This document shows, piece by piece, positions 13,087 through 24,880 of a DNA stretch of 64,000 nt (within the stretch, counting starts at the first letter, position 1; each line of letters opens with the position of its first letter). Origin of the DNA: an uncultured Gammaproteobacteria bacterium (GTDB lineage: Bacteria; Pseudomonadota; Gammaproteobacteria; GCA-001735895). The notes beneath the pieces were generated by a model. That model did not search any database, was not told where the DNA came from, and saw only the letters and a list, made by a program, of their open reading frames with translations. The translations under genes and the position numbers were made by a program. Location: contig CAMYON010000013.1 in NCBI GenBank assembly GCA_947260025.1, positions 20,806 through 84,805 on the forward strand, given 5' to 3'.

Positions 13087-14229
13087 TTAGCCGTCGCTGA
13101 AGGTTTCATGGATATTGACGATATTGTCCAGACGTTCGAAAAAAGCCTCCACGCAAATCGGGTCGAACTGGGTGCCAGCGTGCTTGTGCAGATAATCCTG
13201 GGCGTCCCTGGCTTCCCAGGCGCGTTTATAGGGCCTGATCGATACCAGTGCGTCGTAAACGTCGGCAACCGCGACGATGCGCGCTACCAGTGGAATATCC
13301 TTGCCTGAAAGTCCGTTAGGGTAGCCGGTGCCGTCGAAGCGTTCATGATGGTTGAGCGCGATGATCGAGCCGGTCTGGATGTAACGTGACTGGCTGTTGG
13401 ACAGGATCGAATGCCCGATGATCGTATGTTGCTGCATCGTCAGCCACTCCTGTTGCTCGAACTTGCCGGGCTTGAGCAGGATCTTGTCCTGGATTCCGAT
13501 CTTGCCGATATCGTGCATCGGTGCGGCGTATTCGATTTCATCGCATTCTTTTTCAGACAATCCCAGGGCCTCGGCGATTTCTCGCGAGTACTTGGCCATG
13601 CGTACCACGTGGTTGCCCGTGACTTCATCGCGATATTCGCCAGCCTTGGCCAGTCGCAGCAGGGTTTCATGTTCGCGCGACACGATTTGCTGGGTTGCGA
13701 CCTCGACCTGGCGTGCCAGCCAGTCGGCACGGTCCTGGATAATCGACTGCTGTTCGTGCAGCTTGAGCAGGTTACGGCAGCTGGTGCGGCATTCGATCTG
13801 GTCGATCGGACGCGTCAGGAAGGCGGTGGCGCCAGCCTCGAGTGCGTCGTAGCGTACCGATTTCTCGCTGACCACGGTAATCATCATGATGGGTATATCC
13901 TGGCACGATGGTTTGGCGCGAATCTGCTTAATCATCTCGACGCCGTTGAGATCCGGCATGCGATAATCGGTAATAATAAGGTCCGGATGATTGTGATCCA
14001 GCCACTGCAATGCTTCCAATGGGTTGTCGAAAGAATCGACGCAGACATCTTCTTCGGCTTGCTGAATAATCTTGGCCAGTATCGTTCGGCCGGTGGATTC
14101 GTCGTCGACGATCAGTACTTTTCGTTGGCGTCTGAGAATGCTTAGACGGCGAGCGTTTTCGTACGGTTCGATATTCGAGTCCTTTGGAATATCGGTTTTT
14201 TTATCTGTACTCGAGATCAATTTTTTCAC
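13087..14229 (-). CDS. rpfG: REC plus HD-GYP c-di-GMP phosphodiesterase response regulator RpfG
   Basis: 380 aa; receiver (VLIVDDE...LIITDYRMP); HD-GYP motifs (APMHDIGK, HHERFDGTGYP); 3-nt gap to rpfC. Confidence 0.85.
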   Translation of the reverse strand: MKKLISSTDKKTDIPKDSNIEPYENARRLSILRRQRKVLIVDDESTGRTILAKIIQQAEEDVCVDSFDNPLEALQWLDHNHPDLIITDYRMPDLNGVEMIKQIRAKPSCQDIPIMMITVVSEKSVRYDALEAGATAFLTRPIDQIECRTSCRNLLKLHEQQSIIQDRADWLARQVEVATQQIVSREHETLLRLAKAGEYRDEVTGNHVVRMAKYSREIAEALGLSEKECDEIEYAAPMHDIGKIGIQDKILLKPGKFEQQEWLTMQQHTIIGHSILSNSQSRYIQTGSIIALNHHERFDGTGYPNGLSGKDIPLVARIVAVADVYDALVSIRPYKRAWEARDAQDYLHKHAGTQFDPICVEAFFERLDNIVNIHETFSDG

Positions 14230-14406
14230 CCCACATTGATTCAGACAGGACCGGACATACTAGCAAAATCAATAACTTATGTCGCTTATTTCAACTTATT
14301 GTTGGAACCTGGTCTTAATTGCCAGTTTGTTTATATAGGAAAGTAATTCAATATAATCAAGTTATTATGTTGATGATCTAACAAATCAAATGAATTTATT
14401 TCGGTA

Positions 14407-14877
14407 TTGGTAAATATGTCACATTTACGCGTTTTTATTGCAAATAGCCCTGTCCGCACGGCAATTCAGGTTTTAACCATATGCCTGCTGTTACAGCCCG
14501 TTAGCGCCTTCGCGACACAGTTGGTAGAGGTTAGTGCCGGTGGAACGACGTATCGGGTCGAAGTTGCGCGTACTTCGGCACAGCGCCGCCAGGGCCTGAT
14601 GCATCGGTCAAGCCTGGATCGAGAAGGGGGTATGTTGCTGGTTTACCGGAAGACCGGCGACCATCGAATCTGGATGAAGAATATGCGGATAGCGCTGCGC
14701 GTCTACTGGATCGATGCCGACGCCAGGGTGATTGAAATGCAGCGTCTGGAGCCCTGCCAGGAGTCACCCTGTCCGGTGTATTTTGCCTCGAAGCCGTCGC
14801 GCTACGTGCTCGAACTCAGCGATCACGAGCACCCGCTCGAAGTGGGCGACAGGATCGATGGGCTCAATGAGTTGTGA
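14407..14877 (+). CDS. DUF192-family secreted protein
   Basis: 156 aa; signal peptide; DUF192/COG1430-like pattern; divergent from rpfG across an AT-rich spacer. Confidence 0.6.
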   Translation: MVNMSHLRVFIANSPVRTAIQVLTICLLLQPVSAFATQLVEVSAGGTTYRVEVARTSAQRRQGLMHRSSLDREGGMLLVYRKTGDHRIWMKNMRIALRVYWIDADARVIEMQRLEPCQESPCPVYFASKPSRYVLELSDHEHPLEVGDRIDGLNEL

Positions 14878-15016: not shown

Positions 15017-15150
15017 CGCCGTGAACACGACGAAGTCATTTAGCGCCTGCGACTTGGCGCTTTCCTCCGGGCGGTAGGTCTCGCGCCGTGAACACGACGA
15101 AGTCGTTTAGCGCCTGCGACTTGGCGCTTTCCTCCGGGCGGTAGGTCTCG
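15017..15150. repeat. Perfect 2 x 67-bp tandem direct duplication (one mismatch) inside the 3' end of the MFS transporter gene
   Basis: Copy 1 15017-15083, copy 2 15084-15150 (cgccgtgaacacgacgaagtcRtttagcgcctgcgacttggcgctttcctccgggcggtaggtctcg); 67 is not a multiple of 3. Confidence 0.9.
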
Positions 15151-16106
15151 GTTAGCAGGCTGGTGCCGCCGATAAACATGAAATTCCAGCCGACTCCGAG
15201 CAACAGCAGCGCCGCCCAGAAATGCCAGACCGAGCTGCCGCTGAAGTTGAGCAGGATGCACAGAATCATCAAACTGGCGCCGCTCATGATGATGCGCTGC
15301 GCGCCGAAACGATTAATCAAATGGCCGGTAAAAAACGACGGTACGAACATGCCGAGCACGTGCCATTGAATCACGAATGCAACCTCGCTGAACGCGTGAT
15401 CCTGGTGAGTCATTTCCAGCGGCGTCGCGGTCATCAGCAGCACCATAACGCTATAGCCGATGGCAGCGCTCGCCACCGCGACGATGAAGGCGGGCTGGCG
15501 CGCGATCTGTAGCATCGGTCGGGTATTTTGCCTGAAATCGCGCGCCACGGGTTTGGGCAGTTTCATGCACAGGAAGTTGATGCCGTTGAGGCCGTATAAA
15601 ACGATTACCGAAATAAAAGTACCGAGGTAAGTGATCGCGAAAACATCCTTGCTCAGATTAGCCAGGTTGGGGCCGATAATCGCCGCCAGTACCCCGCCGG
15701 CCAGCACGTAGCTGATCGCCGTATTCTTCTTGTCCGGCGGTGCCACCTCGGTCGCGGCAAATCGAAAGTAATTGCCAAAACCGGTGTACATGCCGGTGCC
15801 TATAGTGCCGATACAGAACAGCAGGAATGAATCCTGGTAAATCCCGATGACGCCGCAGACCGCCCCACTCAGGCCGATCAGCGTGGCCAGTAGAAAACCC
15901 GGCTTGCGTCCGATGCGGCCCATCAGCATCGATGCCGGGATCGTGGTCAGCATCACGGCAACGAACTGCAGTGCGAGAGGTAGCGTGGCCAGCGCCTTGT
16001 TGGTGGCGAGGTGGCTGCCGATAATCGCGGCAGAGGTCACCATCAGCGAGTTCACCGACATCATCAGTGCCTGCGCCAGTCCCAGCAGAAAAACGTTGCG
16101 ATTCAC
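15036..16106 (-). pseudogene. MFS transporter, C-terminally truncated by a frameshifting 67-bp tandem duplication (intact gene would end ~14866)
   Basis: 11 TM helices of the MFS type; GTG start overlaps the stop of the upstream AEC gene (GTGA); removing one repeat copy restores the last TM helix (GAGALLHLLGWQLVNYAVVPLILAAI) and a stop at 14866. Confidence 0.7.
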
Positions 16107-16993
16107 AGGATAAACCACAGTGTCGCCGGGATCACCACGACGCTGGCAAGGTTGCCCATTAACACGATCGATGCAACCCGATGCGGCTCCTGCTCGTAGC
16201 GTTCCGCCACCATGAAGTTCAGCACGGCCGGGGGCAACACGCTGAATAGTACTAACAGGGGTATCTGCGTCTCGGGCAATGGCACCAGGTAGACGAACGG
16301 CACCGCGATCGCCAGGCCGCTGAGCGGGCACAGCAGGGATCCGACCAGGCTGATTCTCCAGTTGGTCAGGTCGATCGCGAGCATGCGCACCCCGAGTGAA
16401 AACAGCATCAGCGGAATCGAGATCAGCCCCAGCATGTGAATCGGCTGGCGCAGGGTTTCGGGAATCACGATGCCCGAGAGCGAAACCGCGATTCCCAACA
16501 CGGTGGCCAGGATCATCGGATTGGTGGCCACCGCCCGCGGCGACCAGTGCTGGGTGATCAATTGCTGTCCTACCAGGAAATGCAGAAAGTTCGAAATTGC
16601 CAGCAGCAGGATCGCCGCTGGCAGCATCGATTCACCGAAGGCCAGCACCACCAGCGGCAAGCCCATGTTGCCGCAATTGTTGAACATCATTGGCGGCACC
16701 AGCGTCTTCCATTGGTAACCGAACGCGCGCGCCACCGGCCAGGCGATCACTCCCGATCCGAGGACTACGAAGACGCAGCCGAGCGACAGGTAAAGATAGT
16801 CGGTCAGCGCGTATTCGCTTCCCGACATGTAGTCGAAAATCAGCGCCGGGGTGAATATGTCCATGTTGATGCGGTTGCCGGAGGACATATCGGTGTCGTG
16901 CCGGTGGCGGGCATAGAAATAGCCGATGGCGACGATGCTGAAAACCGGGAAGATAATCGCAATGATGCGATAAACGAGATCCGCCTGTGACAT
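16103..16993 (-). CDS. AEC-family (auxin efflux carrier/MdcF-like) membrane transporter
   Basis: 296 aa polytopic membrane protein with AEC family similarity; 6 nt downstream of dctM. Confidence 0.7.
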   Translation of the reverse strand: MSQADLVYRIIAIIFPVFSIVAIGYFYARHRHDTDMSSGNRINMDIFTPALIFDYMSGSEYALTDYLYLSLGCVFVVLGSGVIAWPVARAFGYQWKTLVPPMMFNNCGNMGLPLVVLAFGESMLPAAILLLAISNFLHFLVGQQLITQHWSPRAVATNPMILATVLGIAVSLSGIVIPETLRQPIHMLGLISIPLMLFSLGVRMLAIDLTNWRISLVGSLLCPLSGLAIAVPFVYLVPLPETQIPLLVLFSVLPPAVLNFMVAERYEQEPHRVASIVLMGNLASVVVIPATLWFIL

Positions 16994-16999
16994 CAGGTG

Positions 17000-19663
17000 T
17001 CAGAAATGAAGGCTGATGTCTTTGTGTACGGCAAGACAGGTTGCGATCGATTCGGCCTGGTCGGAATCCAGGCGATCCTGCATACGCATGCCGATGGTGC
17101 CGGCGATCGCCTGGTCATATTCCTCGAGGTCGGTCGCGAGTTCCTCGCTGGCGCGCTGATGCCATTCGATTTCGCTTTGCAAGATTTCGGCCGCAAGCAT
17201 GGCCTCGGCCAGCGCCTTTTCCTTGTCGGGCGTCGCGCCGCGCAGGGCACGCTTGGCGCGCGACAGTTTCGACTTGATGCGATGTGTCTCGGTCAGCTCG
17301 TCGATCTTGAACTCTAACGTCTTGATAGCTTCCAGTCCTTCCTCCGGGGACTGAGAGCGGATCAGCTCCAGCAGCGGTTCGAACTCGCCCTGCAGGGCCT
17401 GCAGTTGATCGGTTTCGGAGATCATCCTGCGCATGGTCACAATCATTTCATAGCTGTCGTCGACATTCTGTCGATACTTGCGGCGAGCGGTGGTTTCCAC
17501 GCTGGCCAGGTTCTTGAATTCGCTGCGCCTTTGTTCCCAGTTGTCCGGAATGGTCGCCAGCAAGGCTTCGCTTTCGGCTTCGAGGTCCTTGATCCTGGCG
17601 AGTATGCGCTCGATCGCCGGTTCGTCTACCGGCTGTTCGAAAGCAAGCCGCTGCCGCTCCTGATCCAGTTCTTCGATAGTCTTTTTAAGCTTACGGGCGT
17701 CGCGCTGTATCTGGCGCACCTCGATATGCAGTGGGCGATAACCCGGCGTAAACTGCGCCATCGCAGCCTCGGCGGTACGAATCTCCTCGATCATGCCGAA
17801 CGCCCCGGCTGCCTGGCGGTAGCTCTCGTTGAGCCGTTCCTGGTATTCGTCCGGGAGGTAGGCGAGGTTGGCGGTCCTGACGCGTTCGATGCTGGCCTCG
17901 ATTTCGGCCCGGGTGGCGTCATAGACGACAAACTGGTAATCCTCGAGGCATTCCTGCAGCTTGGGGTTACTGGGTGGTGGCGCGGTTTCCGAAGTCAGGT
18001 GAGTCTTGTTCGGCAGGTAGTTGACCAGGCTCGGGAATGCACCCGCAATCGCGAGGCCGGCGAGCTGCAACACGATAAACGCGGCAGCGCCCTTGTAAAT
18101 CTGCAATGTGCGCACGTCCCTGGGCGCAACGCCGCGCAGGTAAAACAGGGAAAAGCCGAACGGCGGCGTCAGGAACGAGGTCTGGATGTTGAGGCCCACC
18201 ATGACGCCAAACCAGACCGCGGTCACGTTGGCACTGGGATCGGCCAGCAAAATCGGCGCCACGATCGGCACCACGACAACCGCGATTTCGAGAAAGTCGA
18301 GGAAGAATCCGAGGAAGAAGATAACCGCCATGACGACGATGAACTGTGTCCAGAACCCGCCCGGCAGCGACGTCAGGTATTCCTTGACCAGTTCCTCGCC
18401 ACCAAACGCGCGGAACGCCGAAGTCAGCATCGCCGCGCCGAGCAGTATGATGAATACCATCGACGTGGTCTTGGCGGTATCCATCATGACCCCGCGCAGC
18501 GTGTCTTCGATTTTGAAGGCGCGCCAGGTTGCCCAACCGATCGCGCCGATCAGCACCAGTGCCGCAATCGCGGCCAGCGTCACCCCGAACGCATCGTAGC
18601 CGCTTTGAATGTTCTTGATATTGAGACTGAACAGGTTCGTCAGGATGATTATTACGAAGACCGAACCGATGGCCAGTGCCGCCGGGTAGTAAGCCCTTTT
18701 ATGTCCTTCCATCAGACGGTAACTGCCCATCATCATCGCGCCGATGGCTCCGATGGCGCCAGCCTGGTTTACCGTGGCGACGCCGAGAATAATCGAGCCC
18801 AGCACGATAAAGATCAGCGTCAGCGGCGGTACCAGCGCCAACAACACCTTGAGAACGAAATGATGATCGTATTTGCCGTCGAAGGGCACCGGCGGTGCTT
18901 TCTTGGGATTGATCAGGGCCGAGCCCAGGATATAAAGCATGTAGAGGCCGACCAGGATCATGCCCGGCACGAACGCGCCCATGAACATGTCGCCCGCGCT
19001 CGCGGTCACCACGTCGAAATCTCCCGGCATAGAAAATTCACCGGTGGCCTCCTTGTATTCCGCCTTGCGCGTGGTCGCGGCCTGGTCCGCCGCGCTCGAT
19101 AACTGGTCGGCCAGGATAATCAGCACGATCGACGGCGGGATAATCTGTCCCAGCGTTCCCGAGGCGCAGATCGTGCCGCAGGCCAGCGATTTGGAATAGT
19201 TGTTGCGCAGCATGGCCGGCAGCGAGATCAGCCCCATGGCAATGACCGTGGCGCCGACGATCCCGGTGGTGGCGGCGAGCAGCGCGCCAACGAATACGAC
19301 CGATATGCCCAGTCCACCGGGGATTGGCCCGAACAGTTGCGCCATCGCGACCAGCAGGTCCTCGGCGATACGTGAACGTTGCAGCATGATGCCCATGAAA
19401 ATAAACAGCGGGATCGCGATCAGCGTATCGCGCTCGACCACCCAGTAAAGACTTCGGTAGTTGGTAACGCCGGCGCTAAGCCACTGGTTTGGTCCGCCAA
19501 GCACGAAGTAGGCGTCGACATTGCCCTCGAACACCCAGCCGCAGAAGGCGGCAATGGCGATGGTAACGACCGCCGCGCCGGGAAGCGCGAACGCTACCGG
19601 GAAGCCCGAGGTCAGGGCGAACACCATGATTGCGACCAGCAGTACCAGGAAGTACAGTTCCAT
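17000..19663 (-). CDS. dctM: TRAP transporter large permease (DctM family) fused to a ~360-aa C-terminal cytoplasmic coiled-coil domain
   Basis: 887 aa; residues 1-~525 are a 12-TM DctM domain; residues ~530-887 are charged, heptad-rich and unrelated to transporters. Confidence 0.8.
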   Translation of the reverse strand: MELYFLVLLVAIMVFALTSGFPVAFALPGAAVVTIAIAAFCGWVFEGNVDAYFVLGGPNQWLSAGVTNYRSLYWVVERDTLIAIPLFIFMGIMLQRSRIAEDLLVAMAQLFGPIPGGLGISVVFVGALLAATTGIVGATVIAMGLISLPAMLRNNYSKSLACGTICASGTLGQIIPPSIVLIILADQLSSAADQAATTRKAEYKEATGEFSMPGDFDVVTASAGDMFMGAFVPGMILVGLYMLYILGSALINPKKAPPVPFDGKYDHHFVLKVLLALVPPLTLIFIVLGSIILGVATVNQAGAIGAIGAMMMGSYRLMEGHKRAYYPAALAIGSVFVIIILTNLFSLNIKNIQSGYDAFGVTLAAIAALVLIGAIGWATWRAFKIEDTLRGVMMDTAKTTSMVFIILLGAAMLTSAFRAFGGEELVKEYLTSLPGGFWTQFIVVMAVIFFLGFFLDFLEIAVVVVPIVAPILLADPSANVTAVWFGVMVGLNIQTSFLTPPFGFSLFYLRGVAPRDVRTLQIYKGAAAFIVLQLAGLAIAGAFPSLVNYLPNKTHLTSETAPPPSNPKLQECLEDYQFVVYDATRAEIEASIERVRTANLAYLPDEYQERLNESYRQAAGAFGMIEEIRTAEAAMAQFTPGYRPLHIEVRQIQRDARKLKKTIEELDQERQRLAFEQPVDEPAIERILARIKDLEAESEALLATIPDNWEQRRSEFKNLASVETTARRKYRQNVDDSYEMIVTMRRMISETDQLQALQGEFEPLLELIRSQSPEEGLEAIKTLEFKIDELTETHRIKSKLSRAKRALRGATPDKEKALAEAMLAAEILQSEIEWHQRASEELATDLEEYDQAIAGTIGMRMQDRLDSDQAESIATCLAVHKDISLHF

Positions 19664-19664
19664 G

Positions 19665-20711
19665 TCAGTGACCGCCCTCCGAAACCGCGTTTTTATCTTC
19701 CGATATCAACTGGAAGTAGGTCTGGTGCTCCTCGCCCTTGCCGTGGCTGAGCAACTGGTTTGCGTTGTACAACAGGTAGCTGACGAACTGGATCAGCATG
19801 GTAACCGCGAAAATGATCAGGAAAGCGGCCATGAGGTACTTGACGTACATGCCGTAACCGCTTTGCGAGACTTCGAAACTGAGCAGCGGGCTATTGATAC
19901 TGTTGCCGCGGCCGCCCATGCCCTGCATCAGGATAACCCAGCAGATCGGCATGCCGAGAAACAGGCAGCCGATGGTATCGAACAGCGCTTTCTTGCGGCG
20001 CCTGAAACCGGTGTACAGCACATCGACTCGTACGTGGCCTTCCTCAACCAGCGTATGCGCACTGGCGAACAGGAACAGCGCCGCATACCAGAAACGTACC
20101 ACGTCGCCCATGTAAGCCTGCTCGTAGGAAAAAACGAAGCGCGTAATGACGATCAGGAATTCGGCCAGCACGCACATCAAAGCGAGCCAGCTGAAACTGA
20201 TATTGCGCAGCCTGGCCGCGATAAACAGCGAGGCGACGATCAAAGGGTAATGCACGTAGGTGCCACGAAATATGGGACGGCCCAGCTGCTGGTTTAACCA
20301 TTCGCCAGCAATTGGTTCGAGGATGCCTTCCACGCGCAGGAAAGAAATTACCATGTCGACCAGGCCCACCAGCGTTACCGACCAGAACGCGAAACGCACG
20401 AGGTAGGCGGAAAGCCTGGCGAAACGAATGCTGTCCTGCTCGAGCGTGCGCGCATGGGTCTTCAGTACGTATGCGACGCTGCCGGCAAGCAGCAGCAGGT
20501 AGATAATCAGCTGGGTCCAGCCCTGGCTGATTTTTGACTCGTCGAGGGCTTCGACTTCGAGGCCGAACCAGCCGTAATGCAACGCCAGCGCGTAAGGCCC
20601 CGGCATCTCCTGCCAGTAGACCAGGTAATTGTTAATCAGGTACAGAAACACGCCACTGACCATGACGTAGGCGAAACTACGCGTAATCAGGGGCAGGTTA
20701 CGTTGAATCAT
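19665..20711 (-). CDS. dctQ: TRAP transporter small permease (DctQ family), N-terminally extended
   Basis: 348 aa; DctQ signature (VDVLYTGFRRRKKALFDTIGCLFLGMPICW) in the C-terminal half; ~150 extra N-terminal residues with additional TM segments; overlaps the dctM start. Confidence 0.7.
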   Translation of the reverse strand: MIQRNLPLITRSFAYVMVSGVFLYLINNYLVYWQEMPGPYALALHYGWFGLEVEALDESKISQGWTQLIIYLLLLAGSVAYVLKTHARTLEQDSIRFARLSAYLVRFAFWSVTLVGLVDMVISFLRVEGILEPIAGEWLNQQLGRPIFRGTYVHYPLIVASLFIAARLRNISFSWLALMCVLAEFLIVITRFVFSYEQAYMGDVVRFWYAALFLFASAHTLVEEGHVRVDVLYTGFRRRKKALFDTIGCLFLGMPICWVILMQGMGGRGNSINSPLLSFEVSQSGYGMYVKYLMAAFLIIFAVTMLIQFVSYLLYNANQLLSHGKGEEHQTYFQLISEDKNAVSEGGH

Positions 20712-20738
20712 CGAACGAACGACAGCGGGGCGAAAGAA

Positions 20739-20760
20739 AACGGAGCCCGAAGACTCCGTT
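20739..20760 (-). promoter_or_regulatory. Intercistronic stem-loop between dctP and dctQ (7-bp stem aacggag/ctccgtt)
   Basis: Inverted repeat read in sequence within the 72-nt dctP-dctQ spacer. Confidence 0.3.
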
Positions 20761-20783
20761 TAATTTTCGCAATAGATCCGCTG

Positions 20784-21875
20784 CTACAGACCAAGCACGC
20801 GGTTACGCTGCGCCACGTAGGCCTGATCCGAGATCTTGGCCCAGGCACCGACTTCGCCACGCGACTTGAGAAAGCTCTGGTGAATTTTCTTCGCCATCGG
20901 GCTGTGCTGCTGCACTTCCTCGAACACTTCCGCCGCGGCATCGCCGAAGCTGTCGTAGATGTCGTCGCTGAAGTTTCTCAGCTTGACGCCCTGGTCCGAA
21001 ATCAGGCTGGCGAGCGAGGCGCCGTTCTTGGCGTTGTACTCGGACATCATCACTGAATTCTCCGTTTCGGCGGCAGCAGTGATAATGATCTGGTCCGCCT
21101 TGCTCAGACCGTCCCAGAATTTTTTGTTGATACCGAGCGACAGCATCGAGCCTGGCTCGTGCATGCCCGGGTAGTAGTAGAACTTGGCGGCTTCGTAGAA
21201 CTTCATGAAGCTGTCGTTCCAGGGTCCTACCCATTCGGTAGCATCGATCGCGCCGGATACCAGGTTTTCATAAATCTGACCGCCAGGCAGCGATACCGGC
21301 GATGCGCCAAGCTTGGCGAGCACGTCGCCGCCAAGACCCGGGATACGCATTTTCAGGCCCTTGAAATCGGAGGCGGAGCGCATTTCCTTGCGGAACCAGC
21401 CACCCATTTGTACCCCGGTATTACCGCAGGGCAGGCACTTGAGGCCGTAACCGGCGGCGAGTTCGTCCCACAATTCCTGGCCACCGCCGAACTGGGTCCA
21501 GGCGTTGACCTCGGTAAAAGTCATGCCGAAGGGGACGCCGGTAAAATAAGCCCAGCCAGGGTGCTTACCTTTCCAGTAGTAGTCGGCGGCATGGTACATC
21601 TGCGCGTTGCCCGAGGCGACTTCGTCGAACGAATCGAAAGCCTTGACGCGCTCGCCGGCGGCGAAATAGTTGACCTTGATACGACCATCGGTCATCGCGG
21701 TGAGGCGCTCGGCGAAGCGCTGCGCGCCGGTACCGAGACCGGGAAAGTCACGCGGCCAGGTAGATACCATGGTTATTTCGATTCGGCTCTGAGCTATTGC
21801 TGGTGCTGAGACCGCGCCTGCCCCGGTTGCTAATGCGGCGGCGACGCCACCTTTGAGTACATCACGACGTTTCAT
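20784..21875 (-). CDS. dctP: TRAP transporter periplasmic solute-binding protein (DctP family, Tat signal)
   Basis: 363 aa; twin-arginine signal (MKRRDVLKGGVAAALATGAGAVSAPA); DctP/FcbT1-like family. Confidence 0.8.
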   Translation of the reverse strand: MKRRDVLKGGVAAALATGAGAVSAPAIAQSRIEITMVSTWPRDFPGLGTGAQRFAERLTAMTDGRIKVNYFAAGERVKAFDSFDEVASGNAQMYHAADYYWKGKHPGWAYFTGVPFGMTFTEVNAWTQFGGGQELWDELAAGYGLKCLPCGNTGVQMGGWFRKEMRSASDFKGLKMRIPGLGGDVLAKLGASPVSLPGGQIYENLVSGAIDATEWVGPWNDSFMKFYEAAKFYYYPGMHEPGSMLSLGINKKFWDGLSKADQIIITAAAETENSVMMSEYNAKNGASLASLISDQGVKLRNFSDDIYDSFGDAAAEVFEEVQQHSPMAKKIHQSFLKSRGEVGAWAKISDQAYVAQRNRVLGL

Positions 21876-21990: not shown

Positions 21991-22605
21991 TCAAGTTTTA
22001 GCGCCGACCCCGCCGGTATCCGGTGCATCTGTCTGGTGGGCTTTAAGCAAATCCCAGGCGGCCTTGATTTTCGCATTGGGATTCTCACAGTGCTCAGCGA
22101 TGAACTCGGCGGGGATAGTTTCGGGATTCAGTACCTTGTCCGGATGACCTTTCGGGAACAGGGCGCTGTTATCGAAAAACAGGTAGCCGTGAAGCGGTGC
22201 ATCGCCAATCAGTAATCGTAGCGCGGTGATCTGGTTTTCGAGTTCGAATAGAGGGTTTGCAAACTTGAAACTTTGCTGCCCGATGACCTGGGTCCACTCG
22301 GAAATTCGCTCGGCGCAGTAAATGTTCCCGCCGAAGGGTTTGTAGCTGATCAGCAGGATAGCATCACGGGTCAGGGCCAGCCGATCGATTTTATAGTAAC
22401 CCTCGAGCCCGTCGGCACAAACCAGGTCGCGTATCTGTGCGCTGCCGATTCGGTCGAGACAGCGCTGAATTCGCCACTCGCGAAACCAGGACTGGATACG
22501 CTGGCGGTAAACAACAAGGAGCATAACCAGCGCAAACGCCAGTAGCCCGAGGGCGACGAATTCCGATTCCAGGTTTAACTTTTTTGTTATCGATTCTAGA
22601 TCCAT
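21991..22605 (-). CDS. Membrane-anchored NERD-like (nuclease-related domain) protein
   Basis: 204 aa; one N-terminal TM helix; IDRLALTRDAILLISYKPFGGNIY resembles the NERD core. Confidence 0.4.
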   Translation of the reverse strand: MDLESITKKLNLESEFVALGLLAFALVMLLVVYRQRIQSWFREWRIQRCLDRIGSAQIRDLVCADGLEGYYKIDRLALTRDAILLISYKPFGGNIYCAERISEWTQVIGQQSFKFANPLFELENQITALRLLIGDAPLHGYLFFDNSALFPKGHPDKVLNPETIPAEFIAEHCENPNAKIKAAWDLLKAHQTDAPDTGGVGAKT

Positions 22606-22706
22606 GATTCAGAATATTATCCCAGGCTGGCCAAAATGCCATCGCCAATTGCCATCGTCAATGGTAAAAATTACACTGGCAATTATCGATATCGGAGCTA
22701 GCCCGC

Positions 22707-23744
22707 ATGACCACACCCCGTTTAACCGTAAAACAATTGTTCGACCGCGAAAGCTGCACCTACACCTATCTGCTGATCGATGCCGAGACGGGCGAGGGCG
22801 CTATTATCGACGGGGTGCTCGAGACCTTCGACCGTGATATGCAGATCATCAACGAGCTCGGAGTCGAGTTGCTGTACGCGATCGAGACGCATGCACATGC
22901 AGACCACATCACCTCGGCCGGCAAGATTCGGGAAATCACCGGTGCCAAGCTGGTTTACGGCGAGAGCTCCGGTATCGAGGCGATCGACATACCGCTCAAG
23001 GACGGCGACAGCATTCAACTGGGGCATTACCAGATAACGGCGATCTCGACGCCTGGCCACACCAACGGCTGTACCTGTTATTTTTGTGACGGCATGCTGT
23101 TTAGCGGTGACACGCTGCTGATTCGAGGCTGCGGTCGCACTGACTTCCAGTTCGGGGATCCGGGCCATCTGTATGACAGCGTGACGCAAAAACTGTTTGT
23201 GCTTAGCGACGATACCATCGTTTACCCGGCACATGATTATAACGGCCGTACCTGGTCGACCATCGGCGAAGAAAAGACCTGGAATCCGCGGCTCGGCGGC
23301 GGCAGGCCGCGCCAGGAGTTCATCGACCTGATGAACAATCTGAACCTCGACATGCCGAAACGGATCAACGAGGCGGTGCCGGCGAATATGAGCGTCGGTA
23401 TCAGTTTCGATGCCAATCGCTACCTGCTGCGCGACTTCGACATGAATGACCTGCACCAGGTGTGGCAGGATTTACCGCCCAATACGCTGATCATGGATAA
23501 CCGCACACCGGAAGAATATGCCAGGGGCCACGTGCCCGGCAGCCATAATATCCCGATGGGAACCGAGAATTCGCAGGTCGACGATCTGCGACAGTACGAC
23601 CAGATTTACCTCTACTGCCGTTCGGGCCGGCGCGCGCAAACCTCGACCACCAACCTGAACTTCCAGGGGCTCGATCAGATAACCTGTATCAGCCACAGCG
23701 GTATGCCGGACTGGGAAAAAGCCGGCTACCCGGTCGAAACCTGA
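22707..23744 (+). CDS. Persulfide dioxygenase (ETHE1-like MBL fold) fused to a C-terminal rhodanese domain
   Basis: 345 aa; HAHADH metal motif; C-terminal rhodanese with active-site CRSGRR loop. Confidence 0.8.
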   Translation: MTTPRLTVKQLFDRESCTYTYLLIDAETGEGAIIDGVLETFDRDMQIINELGVELLYAIETHAHADHITSAGKIREITGAKLVYGESSGIEAIDIPLKDGDSIQLGHYQITAISTPGHTNGCTCYFCDGMLFSGDTLLIRGCGRTDFQFGDPGHLYDSVTQKLFVLSDDTIVYPAHDYNGRTWSTIGEEKTWNPRLGGGRPRQEFIDLMNNLNLDMPKRINEAVPANMSVGISFDANRYLLRDFDMNDLHQVWQDLPPNTLIMDNRTPEEYARGHVPGSHNIPMGTENSQVDDLRQYDQIYLYCRSGRRAQTSTTNLNFQGLDQITCISHSGMPDWEKAGYPVET

Positions 23745-23755
23745 GACTCCGACGG

Positions 23756-24829
23756 TCAGGCGACCTTCGAAATCACCATGTAGGCGTGGACGTAGTCCAT
23801 ACCGTGACCCGCGGGATTGTCGCGCACCAGGTCGCGATAACTGCCGTAATAGTCCTCGATTATCTGGCGGCGCTGTTCCAGCGGTCGCTGCCCGGACAGG
23901 GCGTTGAAATAGGTACTTTCGTTCCAGCTGCGTATCGTCGGGATATACGCTTCGGCAAATCGAGCAGCGTCCCCATGTTGCGCGAAAGCCTCGGCAAACG
24001 GGCATTTGACGATACGCGTGTCGATATGCTCGAGCCGCAGCCCGGCCTGGTAAACCGCGTCTTCCTGGTCAGTCAACGGTGCGCTGAATTCTTCCACGGT
24101 ATTGTAATACTGCGGCAGGGTCATGTTGTCGTACTCGTCACGCTCGATGCGTCCCTGCTCGAGAAAATCCAGCCAGATCTGGTTGAAGGTGTCGAACATG
24201 TTGACACCCCCGGTATTGCCCAGGTAGCGGCCTTGCTCGTCACAGCCAAAATTGATCAGTATCAGCTTGCCGCCGGGTTTCAGTTCGGTGGCACGGTGCA
24301 ACAGGATCTGGCGCCAGTCCCGATGCGCCTGCGCGCGAAACGCCTCGAGCTCTTCGCCCGCGGCGCCGACCGCCTGCACGTGATTGGTGATATTGCATAC
24401 CTTGCTGCTCATCCAGTGCATCGCGGTAGCGGAAAATCCGATATCGAGGCTAGCCGCCGGCACGATCTGTTTGTAGAAAGTGGTCCCCGAAACCAGTGGA
24501 AAGACATTACTGTGCTTGTCCAGATAGGTTTCGAACGGACCAAGGCCGTAGACGTTCGTGATCAGGGCGTTGAAATCGTTACGCGGCTGGTCCGAATAGA
24601 CGATCGAAACCGGCGCCTCTGGGACGCGCGCTTTAACCGCCTCGATGCTGCTTTCGATCATCGACAGCGAGGTCCCGGCATCGGCGGTGCCCATGTCCGA
24701 TAGCGTGAAGCCATTGACGATCGATTCCTGCGGCAGGCTGTTGATCGCCTCCACGACCATCGGCGTGGCGGCATCGATAACGTGCCTGGCGCCAACCGTC
24801 GCCAGCGAGTAGAGTCCGCCGCCGCTCAT
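23756..24829 (-). CDS. SABATH-family (Methyltransf_7) SAM-dependent carboxyl methyltransferase
   Basis: 357 aa from the second ATG; colinear with plant SAMT-type enzymes (MSGGGxxSxA, DxGxAxGxxSL, DQPxNDFNAL, PGGKLIL). Confidence 0.7.
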   Translation of the reverse strand: MSGGGLYSLATVGARHVIDAATPMVVEAINSLPQESIVNGFTLSDMGTADAGTSLSMIESSIEAVKARVPEAPVSIVYSDQPRNDFNALITNVYGLGPFETYLDKHSNVFPLVSGTTFYKQIVPAASLDIGFSATAMHWMSSKVCNITNHVQAVGAAGEELEAFRAQAHRDWRQILLHRATELKPGGKLILINFGCDEQGRYLGNTGGVNMFDTFNQIWLDFLEQGRIERDEYDNMTLPQYYNTVEEFSAPLTDQEDAVYQAGLRLEHIDTRIVKCPFAEAFAQHGDAARFAEAYIPTIRSWNESTYFNALSGQRPLEQRRQIIEDYYGSYRDLVRDNPAGHGMDYVHAYMVISKVA

Positions 24830-24880
24830 GGTGATACCTTCTGAATGTCCCCGAGTGCCCATGTCTCCTCCGCCGCTTGA

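Follow-up and report, generated by a model that had tools for sequence, protein, structure and literature searches.

A TakP-like TRAP transporter with an extended small subunit and a long, probably periplasmic C-terminal domain on its large permease

A TRAP locus with two lengthened permease subunits

The DNA analysed here, a stretch of 64,000 nucleotides (nt) from an uncultured Gammaproteobacteria bacterium (contig CAMYON010000013.1; hereafter the window), carries five transporter genes, all on the minus strand and co-oriented across positions 15036-21875. Three adjacent genes encode the P, Q and M components of a tripartite ATP-independent periplasmic (TRAP) transporter (DctPQM, TC 2.A.56), namely dctP (20784-21875; a 363-residue solute-binding protein resembling the 2-oxoacid-type TakP, with a Tat-like N-terminal signal), dctQ (19665-20711; the small permease subunit, 348 residues) and dctM (17000-19663; the large permease subunit, 887 residues). 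The stop codon of dctQ and the start codon of dctM are 1 nt apart, and a gene for an AEC/Mem_trans family transporter (16103-16993) starts 6 nt downstream of dctM and is followed by an MFS gene. The open reading frames (ORFs) listed by an earlier, sequence-only reading of this DNA, including the 887-residue DctM and the 348-residue DctQ, are all present at the corresponding window coordinates. Given its membership of the TRAP family, the PQM unit presumably mediates uptake that depends on the binding protein and is driven by an ion gradient.

Both permease subunits carry additions. In DctQ, an N-terminal extension (residues 1-170; 20202-20711, minus strand) precedes a canonical four-helix core (residues 171-348; 19665-20201, minus strand). 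In DctM, an elevator-type large-permease core (residues 1-552; 18008-19663, minus strand) continues into a C-terminal extension (residues 553-887; 17003-18007, minus strand), which consists of an invariant proline-rich linker and an all-helical domain and is called the C-domain below. Judged by sequence, this is an undescribed variant within the known TRAP family and not a new class of system; its function is one that we infer.

Boundaries of the conserved cores

The Pfam DctM domain (PF06808, E=4.4e-61) is confined to the N-terminal part of the 887-residue protein. Against the curated TIGR00786 model, the long DctM scores 265.1 bits, short of the cut-off of 268.45, so that this family falls just outside the model. 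The core is homologous to the solved permeases 9pym, 8y4w, 7qe5, 8thi and 7qha (E 1e-13 to 1e-19), and the homology spans the whole core and reaches their C-terminal ends: residues 441-552 (…FPSLVNYLPN) align to residues 553-659 of the 664-residue 8y4w chain, and the alignment to the 635-residue 9pym chain extends to its residue 629. Because the core through residue 552 matches the C-terminal end of the solved permeases, the extension comprises residues 553-887, that is, 335 residues, and begins directly after the last DctM helix.

Relative to the solved structures, the core itself contains two insertions. One is a loop of about 31 residues at ~186-220, after residue 183. The other, of about 65 residues, comprises two extra hydrophobic helices at residues 323-383 (18515-18697, minus strand), with hydropathy segments at 323-350 and 354-383 and an alignment gap against 9pym between residues 347 and 395; since the number of helices added is even, it leaves the topology unchanged. 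The sequence-only reading had described about 525 residues of normal DctM with 12 transmembrane helices, followed by an extension of about 360 residues. The DctM identity of the core and the in-frame extension are borne out, but the core runs to residue 552 and is not of the plain form, and the extension is correspondingly 335 residues long.

In DctQ, the Pfam domain (PF04290) was found at residues 185-310 (E=3.7e-08; 33.8 bits against a cut-off of 28.3), in agreement with the earlier observation that the DctQ signature is limited to the C-terminal half of the 348-residue protein; for residues 1-170, neither Pfam nor NCBIfam gives a match. Within the protein, conservation is highest in the core. 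Among 72 homologs, the N-terminal extension is conserved from residue ~5-10 to 180, most strongly at residues 100-180, with R106, G116, D119, R126, E128, G144, R149, H154 and P156 invariant. This conservation includes the part upstream of the internal start (MVISFL) that had been proposed as an alternative, and the long DctQ start is upheld.

The long frames are genuine and widespread

The full-length protein, used as query, retrieved at least 120 clusters with 75-95% identity to the long DctM, all but three of them 881-899 residues long, with member lengths of 886-887 residues in nearly all. We further analysed 80 retained related loci and one additional locus, L001. Except at contig ends and in three frameshifted assemblies, the C-domain lies in one stop-to-stop frame with a complete DctM in these loci (885-935 codons in most, up to 995), and about 70 complete loci from several classes repeat the long DctM frame. 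A long DctQ is encoded upstream of the long DctM in every locus with upstream sequence, and the gene order P-Q-M is universal among loci with enough sequence.

The three frameshifted assemblies (L001, 4972-7635; L012, 6387-9078; L070, 6397-9074) are long-read or polished metagenome-assembled genomes, in which frameshifts split the long dctM into two or three ORFs. None of the breaks falls at the junction; they lie in the DctM core or in the domain. Frameshifts of this kind explain many of the 'partial' database entries and also why a search with the tail by itself retrieved no full-length proteins. A C-domain profile search of 1.84 billion representative proteins gave 705 matches, most of which, among those listed, are fragments ending at the C-terminus of the domain, and all six longer proteins that were checked carry DctM. 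A split-gene reading, raised by the fragments of at most 629 residues in the C-domain-only search, was rejected on the grounds that L001 is frameshifted and that the full-length search gave 887-residue forms. The sole stand-alone copy, a 268-residue ORF in L032 (15202-16008) that represents the last ~230 residues of a second C-domain, was likewise rejected as an independent gene. It is a 5'-truncated remnant adjoining a DNA methylase gene and an ATPase gene (a restriction-modification island), and is probably what a mobile island has left of a second long dctM.

The fusion is therefore not the product of a missed stop codon or indel at the junction, since one frame is kept in the clusters and loci described above, and orthologs checked for a separate extension ORF always have it fused, apart from the L032 remnant. 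An artefact, whether a junction of two genes created by a sequencing or assembly error or a DctQ lengthened by a wrongly called start, could appeal to the split genes in L001, L012 and L070 and to the many fragmentary database entries. It would have to account for an 881-899-residue frame recurring in independent clusters and complete loci of several classes, for splits that avoid the junction, and for a DctQ extension that is conserved almost from its first residues; we regard it as practically excluded. The tests for a frameshift, for a separate ORF and for an unconserved DctQ N-terminus all favour a genuine fusion and a genuine long DctQ.

The C-domain was confirmed in 540 of the first 600 pattern matches, counted with one genome per species, and hence occurs in at least 540 species. 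Its hosts include Gamma- and Alphaproteobacteria, Rhodospirillales, Thalassospiraceae, Magnetovibrio, Defluviicoccus and Kiloniellaceae, as well as Desulfofustis (Desulfobacterota), SAR324, Motiliproteus, Nitrincola, Halopseudomonas and Osedax symbionts. Searches of the full-text literature brought up no account of a DctM or DctQ with such extensions. Database names are generic ('TRAP transporter large permease subunit', 'C4-dicarboxylate ABC transporter permease'); one example is OUS36741.1 from the Osedax symbiont isolate Rs2_46_30_T18, a long DctM under such a name.

A conserved helical domain with two invariant cysteines

Across 80 genomes from several classes, the C-domain is 36-70% identical to that of the window, and about 50 positions are conserved in at least 95% of the 80 sequences, which is far beyond chance. 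The domain is entered through the invariant linker T560-A-P-P-P-x-N-P-x-L-Q-x-C572. Further conserved positions are Y642, P644, H646, R650, P706, W709, Y730, R731, D735 and Y738, together with R805, W834, G858, R860 and Q862, and the exact C-terminus of the protein reads C876-x3-H880-x-D882-x-S-L-x-F887. Judging by these alignments and those of DctQ, the C-domain and the DctQ extension are both under purifying selection.

All 80 homologs contain exactly two cysteines in the C-domain, Cys572 and Cys876, and none elsewhere in it. The codons of both were verified in the window (17948-17950 for Cys572 and 17036-17038 for Cys876, within the C-x3-H-x-D motif; minus strand). The cysteine background in the neighbouring genes is 1.18%, from which about four cysteines per C-domain would be expected. 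The pattern suggests that the domain is probably stapled, either by a putative Cys572-Cys876 disulfide or by a putative Cys/His/Asp/Glu metal site.

An AlphaFold2 model of the C-domain, built from a 71-sequence alignment, reached a pLDDT of 91.6 and a pTM of 0.82. About 80% of the model is helix, and one helix of 70 residues would be ~105 Å long at 1.5 Å per residue. The domain is thus modelled with confidence as an elongated, compact intramolecular helical bundle with specific invariant polar and aromatic residues. The sequence-only reading had called the extension a coiled coil; its helical and highly charged nature is retained in the model, and what does not hold is a generic heptad repeat. 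A Foldseek search of the PDB found no fold at E<=0.001 (best E=0.02, with a TM-score of at most 0.24 on query length), with designed bundles and elongated toxin bundles as its top matches. Neither Pfam nor NCBIfam has a family that matches the C-domain; the match of the tail to an SMC-type coiled-coil model in NCBIfam (TIGR02168, E=0.0011) is weak and spurious. Similarity to known periplasmic helical sensor or docking domains, namely the four-helix-bundle sensors of chemoreceptors and kinases and MalF-P2, was not detected.

The C-domain is predicted to face the periplasm

Topology studies of DctQ place its termini in the cytoplasm. The orientation of the M component can be derived from the solved transporters: the M domain of HiSiaQM has ten crossing helices (TM2-11) and two non-crossing hairpins, and fused QM proteins require an extra connector helix (TM1) between Q and M (PMC9352664). 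Because the M domain crosses ten times and the connector is needed, both M termini lie in the periplasm, opposite the Q termini. By analogy with these structures, the side of the M termini is the periplasmic face at which the binding protein docks.

The last DctM helix encoded in the window is homologous to TM11 of HiSiaQM. It is preceded by the segment R-D-V-R-T-L-Q-I-Y-K, the R, R and K of which agree with the positive-inside rule, and directly followed by polar sequence; a hydropathy scan showed no further hydrophobic segment downstream of it. Hydropathy and positive-inside counting over the whole of DctM was not decisive because of the re-entrant hairpins, and the topology therefore rests mainly on homology to the solved structures. 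The pattern of two cysteines and no others fits an extracytoplasmic disulfide or a Cys/His/Asp metal site. We hold with high confidence both to the anatomy described above and, on the topology of the solved SiaQM proteins, to a periplasmic location of the C-domain.

The DctQ extension as additional membrane helices

The AlphaFold model of DctQ is of moderate confidence (pLDDT 73.8). It has helices at residues 2-33, 58-84, 90-127 and 154-167 in the extension and at 173-193, 196-224, 238-265 and 285-321 in the core, and the charge distribution fits an eight-helix protein with its N-terminus inside, that is, predicted to be cytoplasmic. The extension is thus predicted to add about four transmembrane helices. 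Its predicted periplasmic loops comprise residues ~34-57 and 128-153, and an invariant LGRPxFRGxxxHYP motif occupies the second of these.

Within residues 100-128 of the extension, the invariant charged residues R106, D119, R126 and E128 are placed inside a predicted membrane helix or at its end, and charged invariants of this kind are unusual for a passive scaffold helix. A tandem duplication as the origin of the long DctQ was considered and rejected: comparison of the extension with the core by hhalign, using 72-sequence profiles, gave a probability of 0.7% (E=0.077). A Foldseek search of the PDB with the DctQ model was uninformative, SiaQM itself not being retrieved.

A TakP-like binding protein and a structured intergenic spacer

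The DctP of the window matches Pfam DctP (PF03480, E=1.5e-51) and NF037995 (52.5 bits, cut-off 50), and its N-terminus (MKRRDVLKGG…) gives a weak Pfam TAT_signal match. The closest solved structures are 5cm6 (1.9e-77), 4pet (7.5e-77), 2hzk (TakP; 2.2e-76) and the ketoacid-binding protein 7ug8 (2.8e-71). In TakP, Arg177 and Tyr100 are the ligands of the pyruvate carboxylate (PMC1839085). Both are conserved in the ungapped alignment to 2hzk, where LKMRIPG of the window stands opposite LKMRVGG, and YY opposite Y99 and Y100. The alignment reaches residue 352 of the 365 of TakP and covers the region of its long C-terminal helix, by which TakP forms a helix-swapped back-to-back dimer; the authors of that work proposed that this dimer remains docked on the permease (PMC1839085). 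By similarity, DctP is TakP-like and its predicted ligands are 2-oxoacids, presumably bound together with a cation as in the TakP type.

The spacer of 72 nt between dctP and dctQ, whose length had been given correctly, is not featureless. It contains an RNA element (20722-20784, minus strand) in which a GC-rich hairpin, capped by a UUCG loop, stands ahead of the U-run UUUUCUUU; the element is terminator- or attenuator-like. The hairpin has a folding energy of -31.5 kcal/mol (z = -4.47), and none of 200 shuffled sequences folds as well; a simple terminator scan did not list it. Of the 70 related loci analysed, 68 have P-Q spacers of 67-289 nt with strong structure; two longer ones, of 491 and 675 nt, were not part of the folding set. 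No obvious Shine-Dalgarno sequence precedes the dctQ ATG at 20711. The hairpin looks like an attenuator or an mRNA-stabilising element. A structured P-Q spacer is the usual means of expressing the binding protein in excess over the membrane subunits.

Neighbouring genes

The gene downstream of dctM encodes an AEC transporter (Pfam Mem_trans, E=1.7e-18), and the last of the five genes an MFS transporter. As listed, the MFS ORF (15036-16331, minus strand; 431 residues; Pfam MFS_1, E=1.1e-23, residues 85-412) overlaps the AEC gene by 229 nt. Its homologs align only from residue ~45-65 of the window ORF, and candidate GTG starts at 16118 and 16106 would reduce the overlap with the AEC stop to 4-16 nt; the true start is therefore later than that of the ORF, probably at one of these two codons (15036-16118 for the longer form).

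Both genes are clade-specific companions: the AEC gene, with or without the MFS gene, follows PQM only in the gammaproteobacterial clade of the window (L002-L018), and the conserved unit across the family consists of P, long Q and long M. The dctPQM-AEC-MFS operon of the sequence-only reading is thereby retained as a PQM unit, with AEC and MFS belonging to one clade and with a terminator-like hairpin situated between dctP and dctQ. In two Desulfofustis-like loci (L001, 7786-10432; L075, 5890-8521), a LeuA/citramalate-synthase-like gene comes after the long PQM, and a distant Mem_trans (AEC) gene lies two genes downstream. The AEC association thus recurs in a distant lineage, beside an enzyme that condenses 2-oxoacids, a neighbour that we count in favour of the 2-oxoacid substrate class.

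In the neighbourhoods of the related loci, no neighbouring gene is conserved with PQM across the family. The neighbours found are only housekeeping or clade-specific genes, encoding a topoisomerase IV/gyrase subunit A family protein, an ATE-family protein transferase (PF04376/PF04377), RecO, NERD, BioY and EamA. The flanks of the window locus (13087-14877 and 21991-24862) are syntenic with the closest relatives, L003-L019. One flank encodes a DUF192 protein and a response regulator with an HD-type domain, and the other a NERD-domain protein, a metallo-beta-lactamase/rhodanese fusion and a SAM-dependent carboxyl methyltransferase. Across the wider family, the window's flanking genes are not conserved with the transporter.

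Comparison with known transport systems

The TakP/TakQM system of Rhodobacter sphaeroides, a TRAP transporter of alpha-keto acids (2hzk/2hzl), has the same dctP-dctQ-dctM order. The window DctP matches TakP and the pyruvate-type binders 5cm6, 4pet and 7ug8 at E ~1e-77 to 1e-71, keeps Arg177 and Tyr100 and aligns into the region of the long dimer-swap C-terminal helix of TakP. The window transporter apparently differs from the TakP system in its roughly 170 additional residues at the N-terminus of DctQ, the two insertions in the DctM core and the 335-residue C-domain, to judge by the TakP paper (PMC1839085) and the papers on TRAP structures that were consulted, which mention no such features.

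The SiaQM transporters (HiSiaQM 7qe5/8thi, PpSiaQM 7qha, 8y4w) and the isethionate permease 9pym are homologous to the DctM core along its whole length, and presumably share their elevator mechanism and periplasmic binding-protein docking with the window transporter. The solved permeases end a few residues past the last helix and present a relatively flat periplasmic face (PMC9352664), whereas the window DctM continues into a large domain. Similarly, solved Q subunits have four helices, plus one connector when fused, in contrast to about eight predicted for the window DctQ.

The MalF P2 loop of the E. coli maltose ABC importer offers a functional analogy, as a large periplasmic domain of a binding-protein-dependent permease that contacts the binding protein, a role of the sort suggested below for the C-domain. 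It belongs to another superfamily, has another fold that is not all-helical, and is an internal loop rather than a C-terminal tail; the Foldseek search of the PDB and sequence comparison showed no similarity of the C-domain to it.

Linkage of the two extensions and a model for their function

The DctQ extension and the DctM C-domain are found together in every locus. When 61 paired loci were compared by mirror-tree, these were the two fast segments, with mean distances of 0.92 (DctQ extension) and 1.09 (C-domain) versus 0.30-0.40 for DctP and for the cores of DctQ and DctM. Of all pairs of distance matrices, theirs correlate best (r=0.68; partial r=0.50 when controlling for the DctM core). As weak evidence, this pattern points to a unit formed by the C-domain and the DctQ extension rather than to a tight interface between the C-domain and DctP.

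We somewhat favour, as the best overall explanation of these data, a widespread and undescribed TakP-type TRAP subfamily in which two accessory modules, invariably inherited as a pair, are built onto a P-Q-M core. In such a transporter, the invariant TAPPPxNP linker would suspend the C-domain from the final helix of the mobile transport (elevator) domain, and the C-domain, stapled in the periplasm, could pack onto the conserved periplasmic loops of the DctQ extension. The two together would build a periplasmic superstructure beside the docking surface of the binding protein, which might guide, retain or gate the TakP-like receptor. Instead, or as well, the C-domain may act as a leash between the elevator domain and the static scaffold in its enlarged form. 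In both cases, the uptake of a monocarboxylic 2-oxoacid such as pyruvate would be tuned. A docking or gating role of the C-domain is tentative, with a likelihood approaching but not exceeding an even one. A stronger form of the model is a tethered receptor, in which a ~100 Å periplasmic arm formed by the C-domain, together with the extra DctQ helices, would keep the TakP-like dimer permanently docked; we consider this form doubtful.

Several observations weigh against the favoured explanation or parts of it. The partial correlation between DctP and the C-domain (r=0.13) is the lowest of all pairs, which argues against a tight, specific interface between the domain and the binding protein. The mirror-tree signal itself is weak evidence and may reflect the largest dynamic range, which the two fast segments share. 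The substrate assignment is drawn from ~42-45% identity to pyruvate binders, as estimated from alignments, and the count of four extra DctQ helices derives in part from the positive-inside pattern, at a pLDDT of 73.8. Moreover, ordinary short QM subunits also serve TakP-type binding proteins, so that the additions are not needed for TakP-like receptors generally.

Part of the same evidence would suit a purely structural role, in which the additions enlarge or stabilise the immobile scaffold or dimerise QM units without contacting the binding protein or controlling its docking. Elevator transporters generally need a large fixed scaffold. Here the two additions appear to co-vary, whereas DctP is the component with which the C-domain co-varies least. 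At 27-38 residues, the added DctQ helices also have a length that recalls the inclined helices of the DctQ sheet, which wraps the M scaffold (PMC9352664). The C-domain, however, is attached to the last helix, which in HiSiaQM is part of the moving bundle (TM5, 6, 10 and 11), and its ~50 invariant polar and aromatic residues (among them Y642, H646, R650, Y730, R731, D735, Y738, R860, Q862, H880 and D882) resemble a binding site more than a strut. We judge this explanation unlikely, if still worth serious attention. Another rival reading is a periplasmic sensor or regulatory domain, a 'transceptor' on the outer side of the membrane, whose bundle would bind a ligand, a metal or a partner such as the sensor domain of a histidine kinase, and so control transport allosterically or report on the status of the transporter. 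The conserved C-x-E and C-x3-H-x-D motifs are candidates for a metal or ligand site, the elongated bundle loosely recalls periplasmic helical sensor domains, and a response-regulator/HD-domain gene and a hybrid histidine kinase gene lie nearby in the window's clade. Yet the fold has no significant match to a solved sensor domain, signalling genes are adjacent in that clade only, and no partner gene is conserved with PQM; a sensor function seems to us quite unlikely.

The sequence-only reading had instead placed the extension in the cytoplasm, as a coiled-coil module for scaffolding or transceptor-like signalling. What speaks for this model is the highly charged, helical sequence and the weak, spurious SMC-type coiled-coil match. 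In the solved homologs, however, the last DctM helix exits to the periplasm, and in the window no membrane-spanning segment comes after it; the two-cysteine pattern fits an oxidising compartment, and the modelled domain is a compact intramolecular bundle with specific invariant residues. A cytoplasmic location is therefore very improbable and finds no support in these data, and neither does the idea of a cytoplasmic scaffold or transceptor that depends on it.

Implications for TRAP transport

TRAP transporters are major organic-acid uptake systems of marine and host-associated bacteria, and the first structures of their permeases date from 2022. To our knowledge, all current mechanistic models of TRAP transport assume a flat periplasmic face on which a free binding protein lands. 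In a subfamily of at least 540 species, the mobile transport domain bears a 335-residue domain, most probably periplasmic, and the small subunit is doubled, which shows that the TRAP architecture is more modular than has been described. The analysis also defines two protein modules that have no Pfam or NCBIfam model and have been hidden under generic names. These results will be of interest mainly to specialists in TRAP and elevator-type transporters, for whom the subfamily may serve as a natural system for how receptor docking is coupled to elevator movement. If the tethered-receptor form of the model were true, the membrane-bound dimer put forward for TakP in 2007 would be realised in this transporter, and the elevator cycle would gain a new regulatory layer through the attachment of the arm to the moving transport domain.

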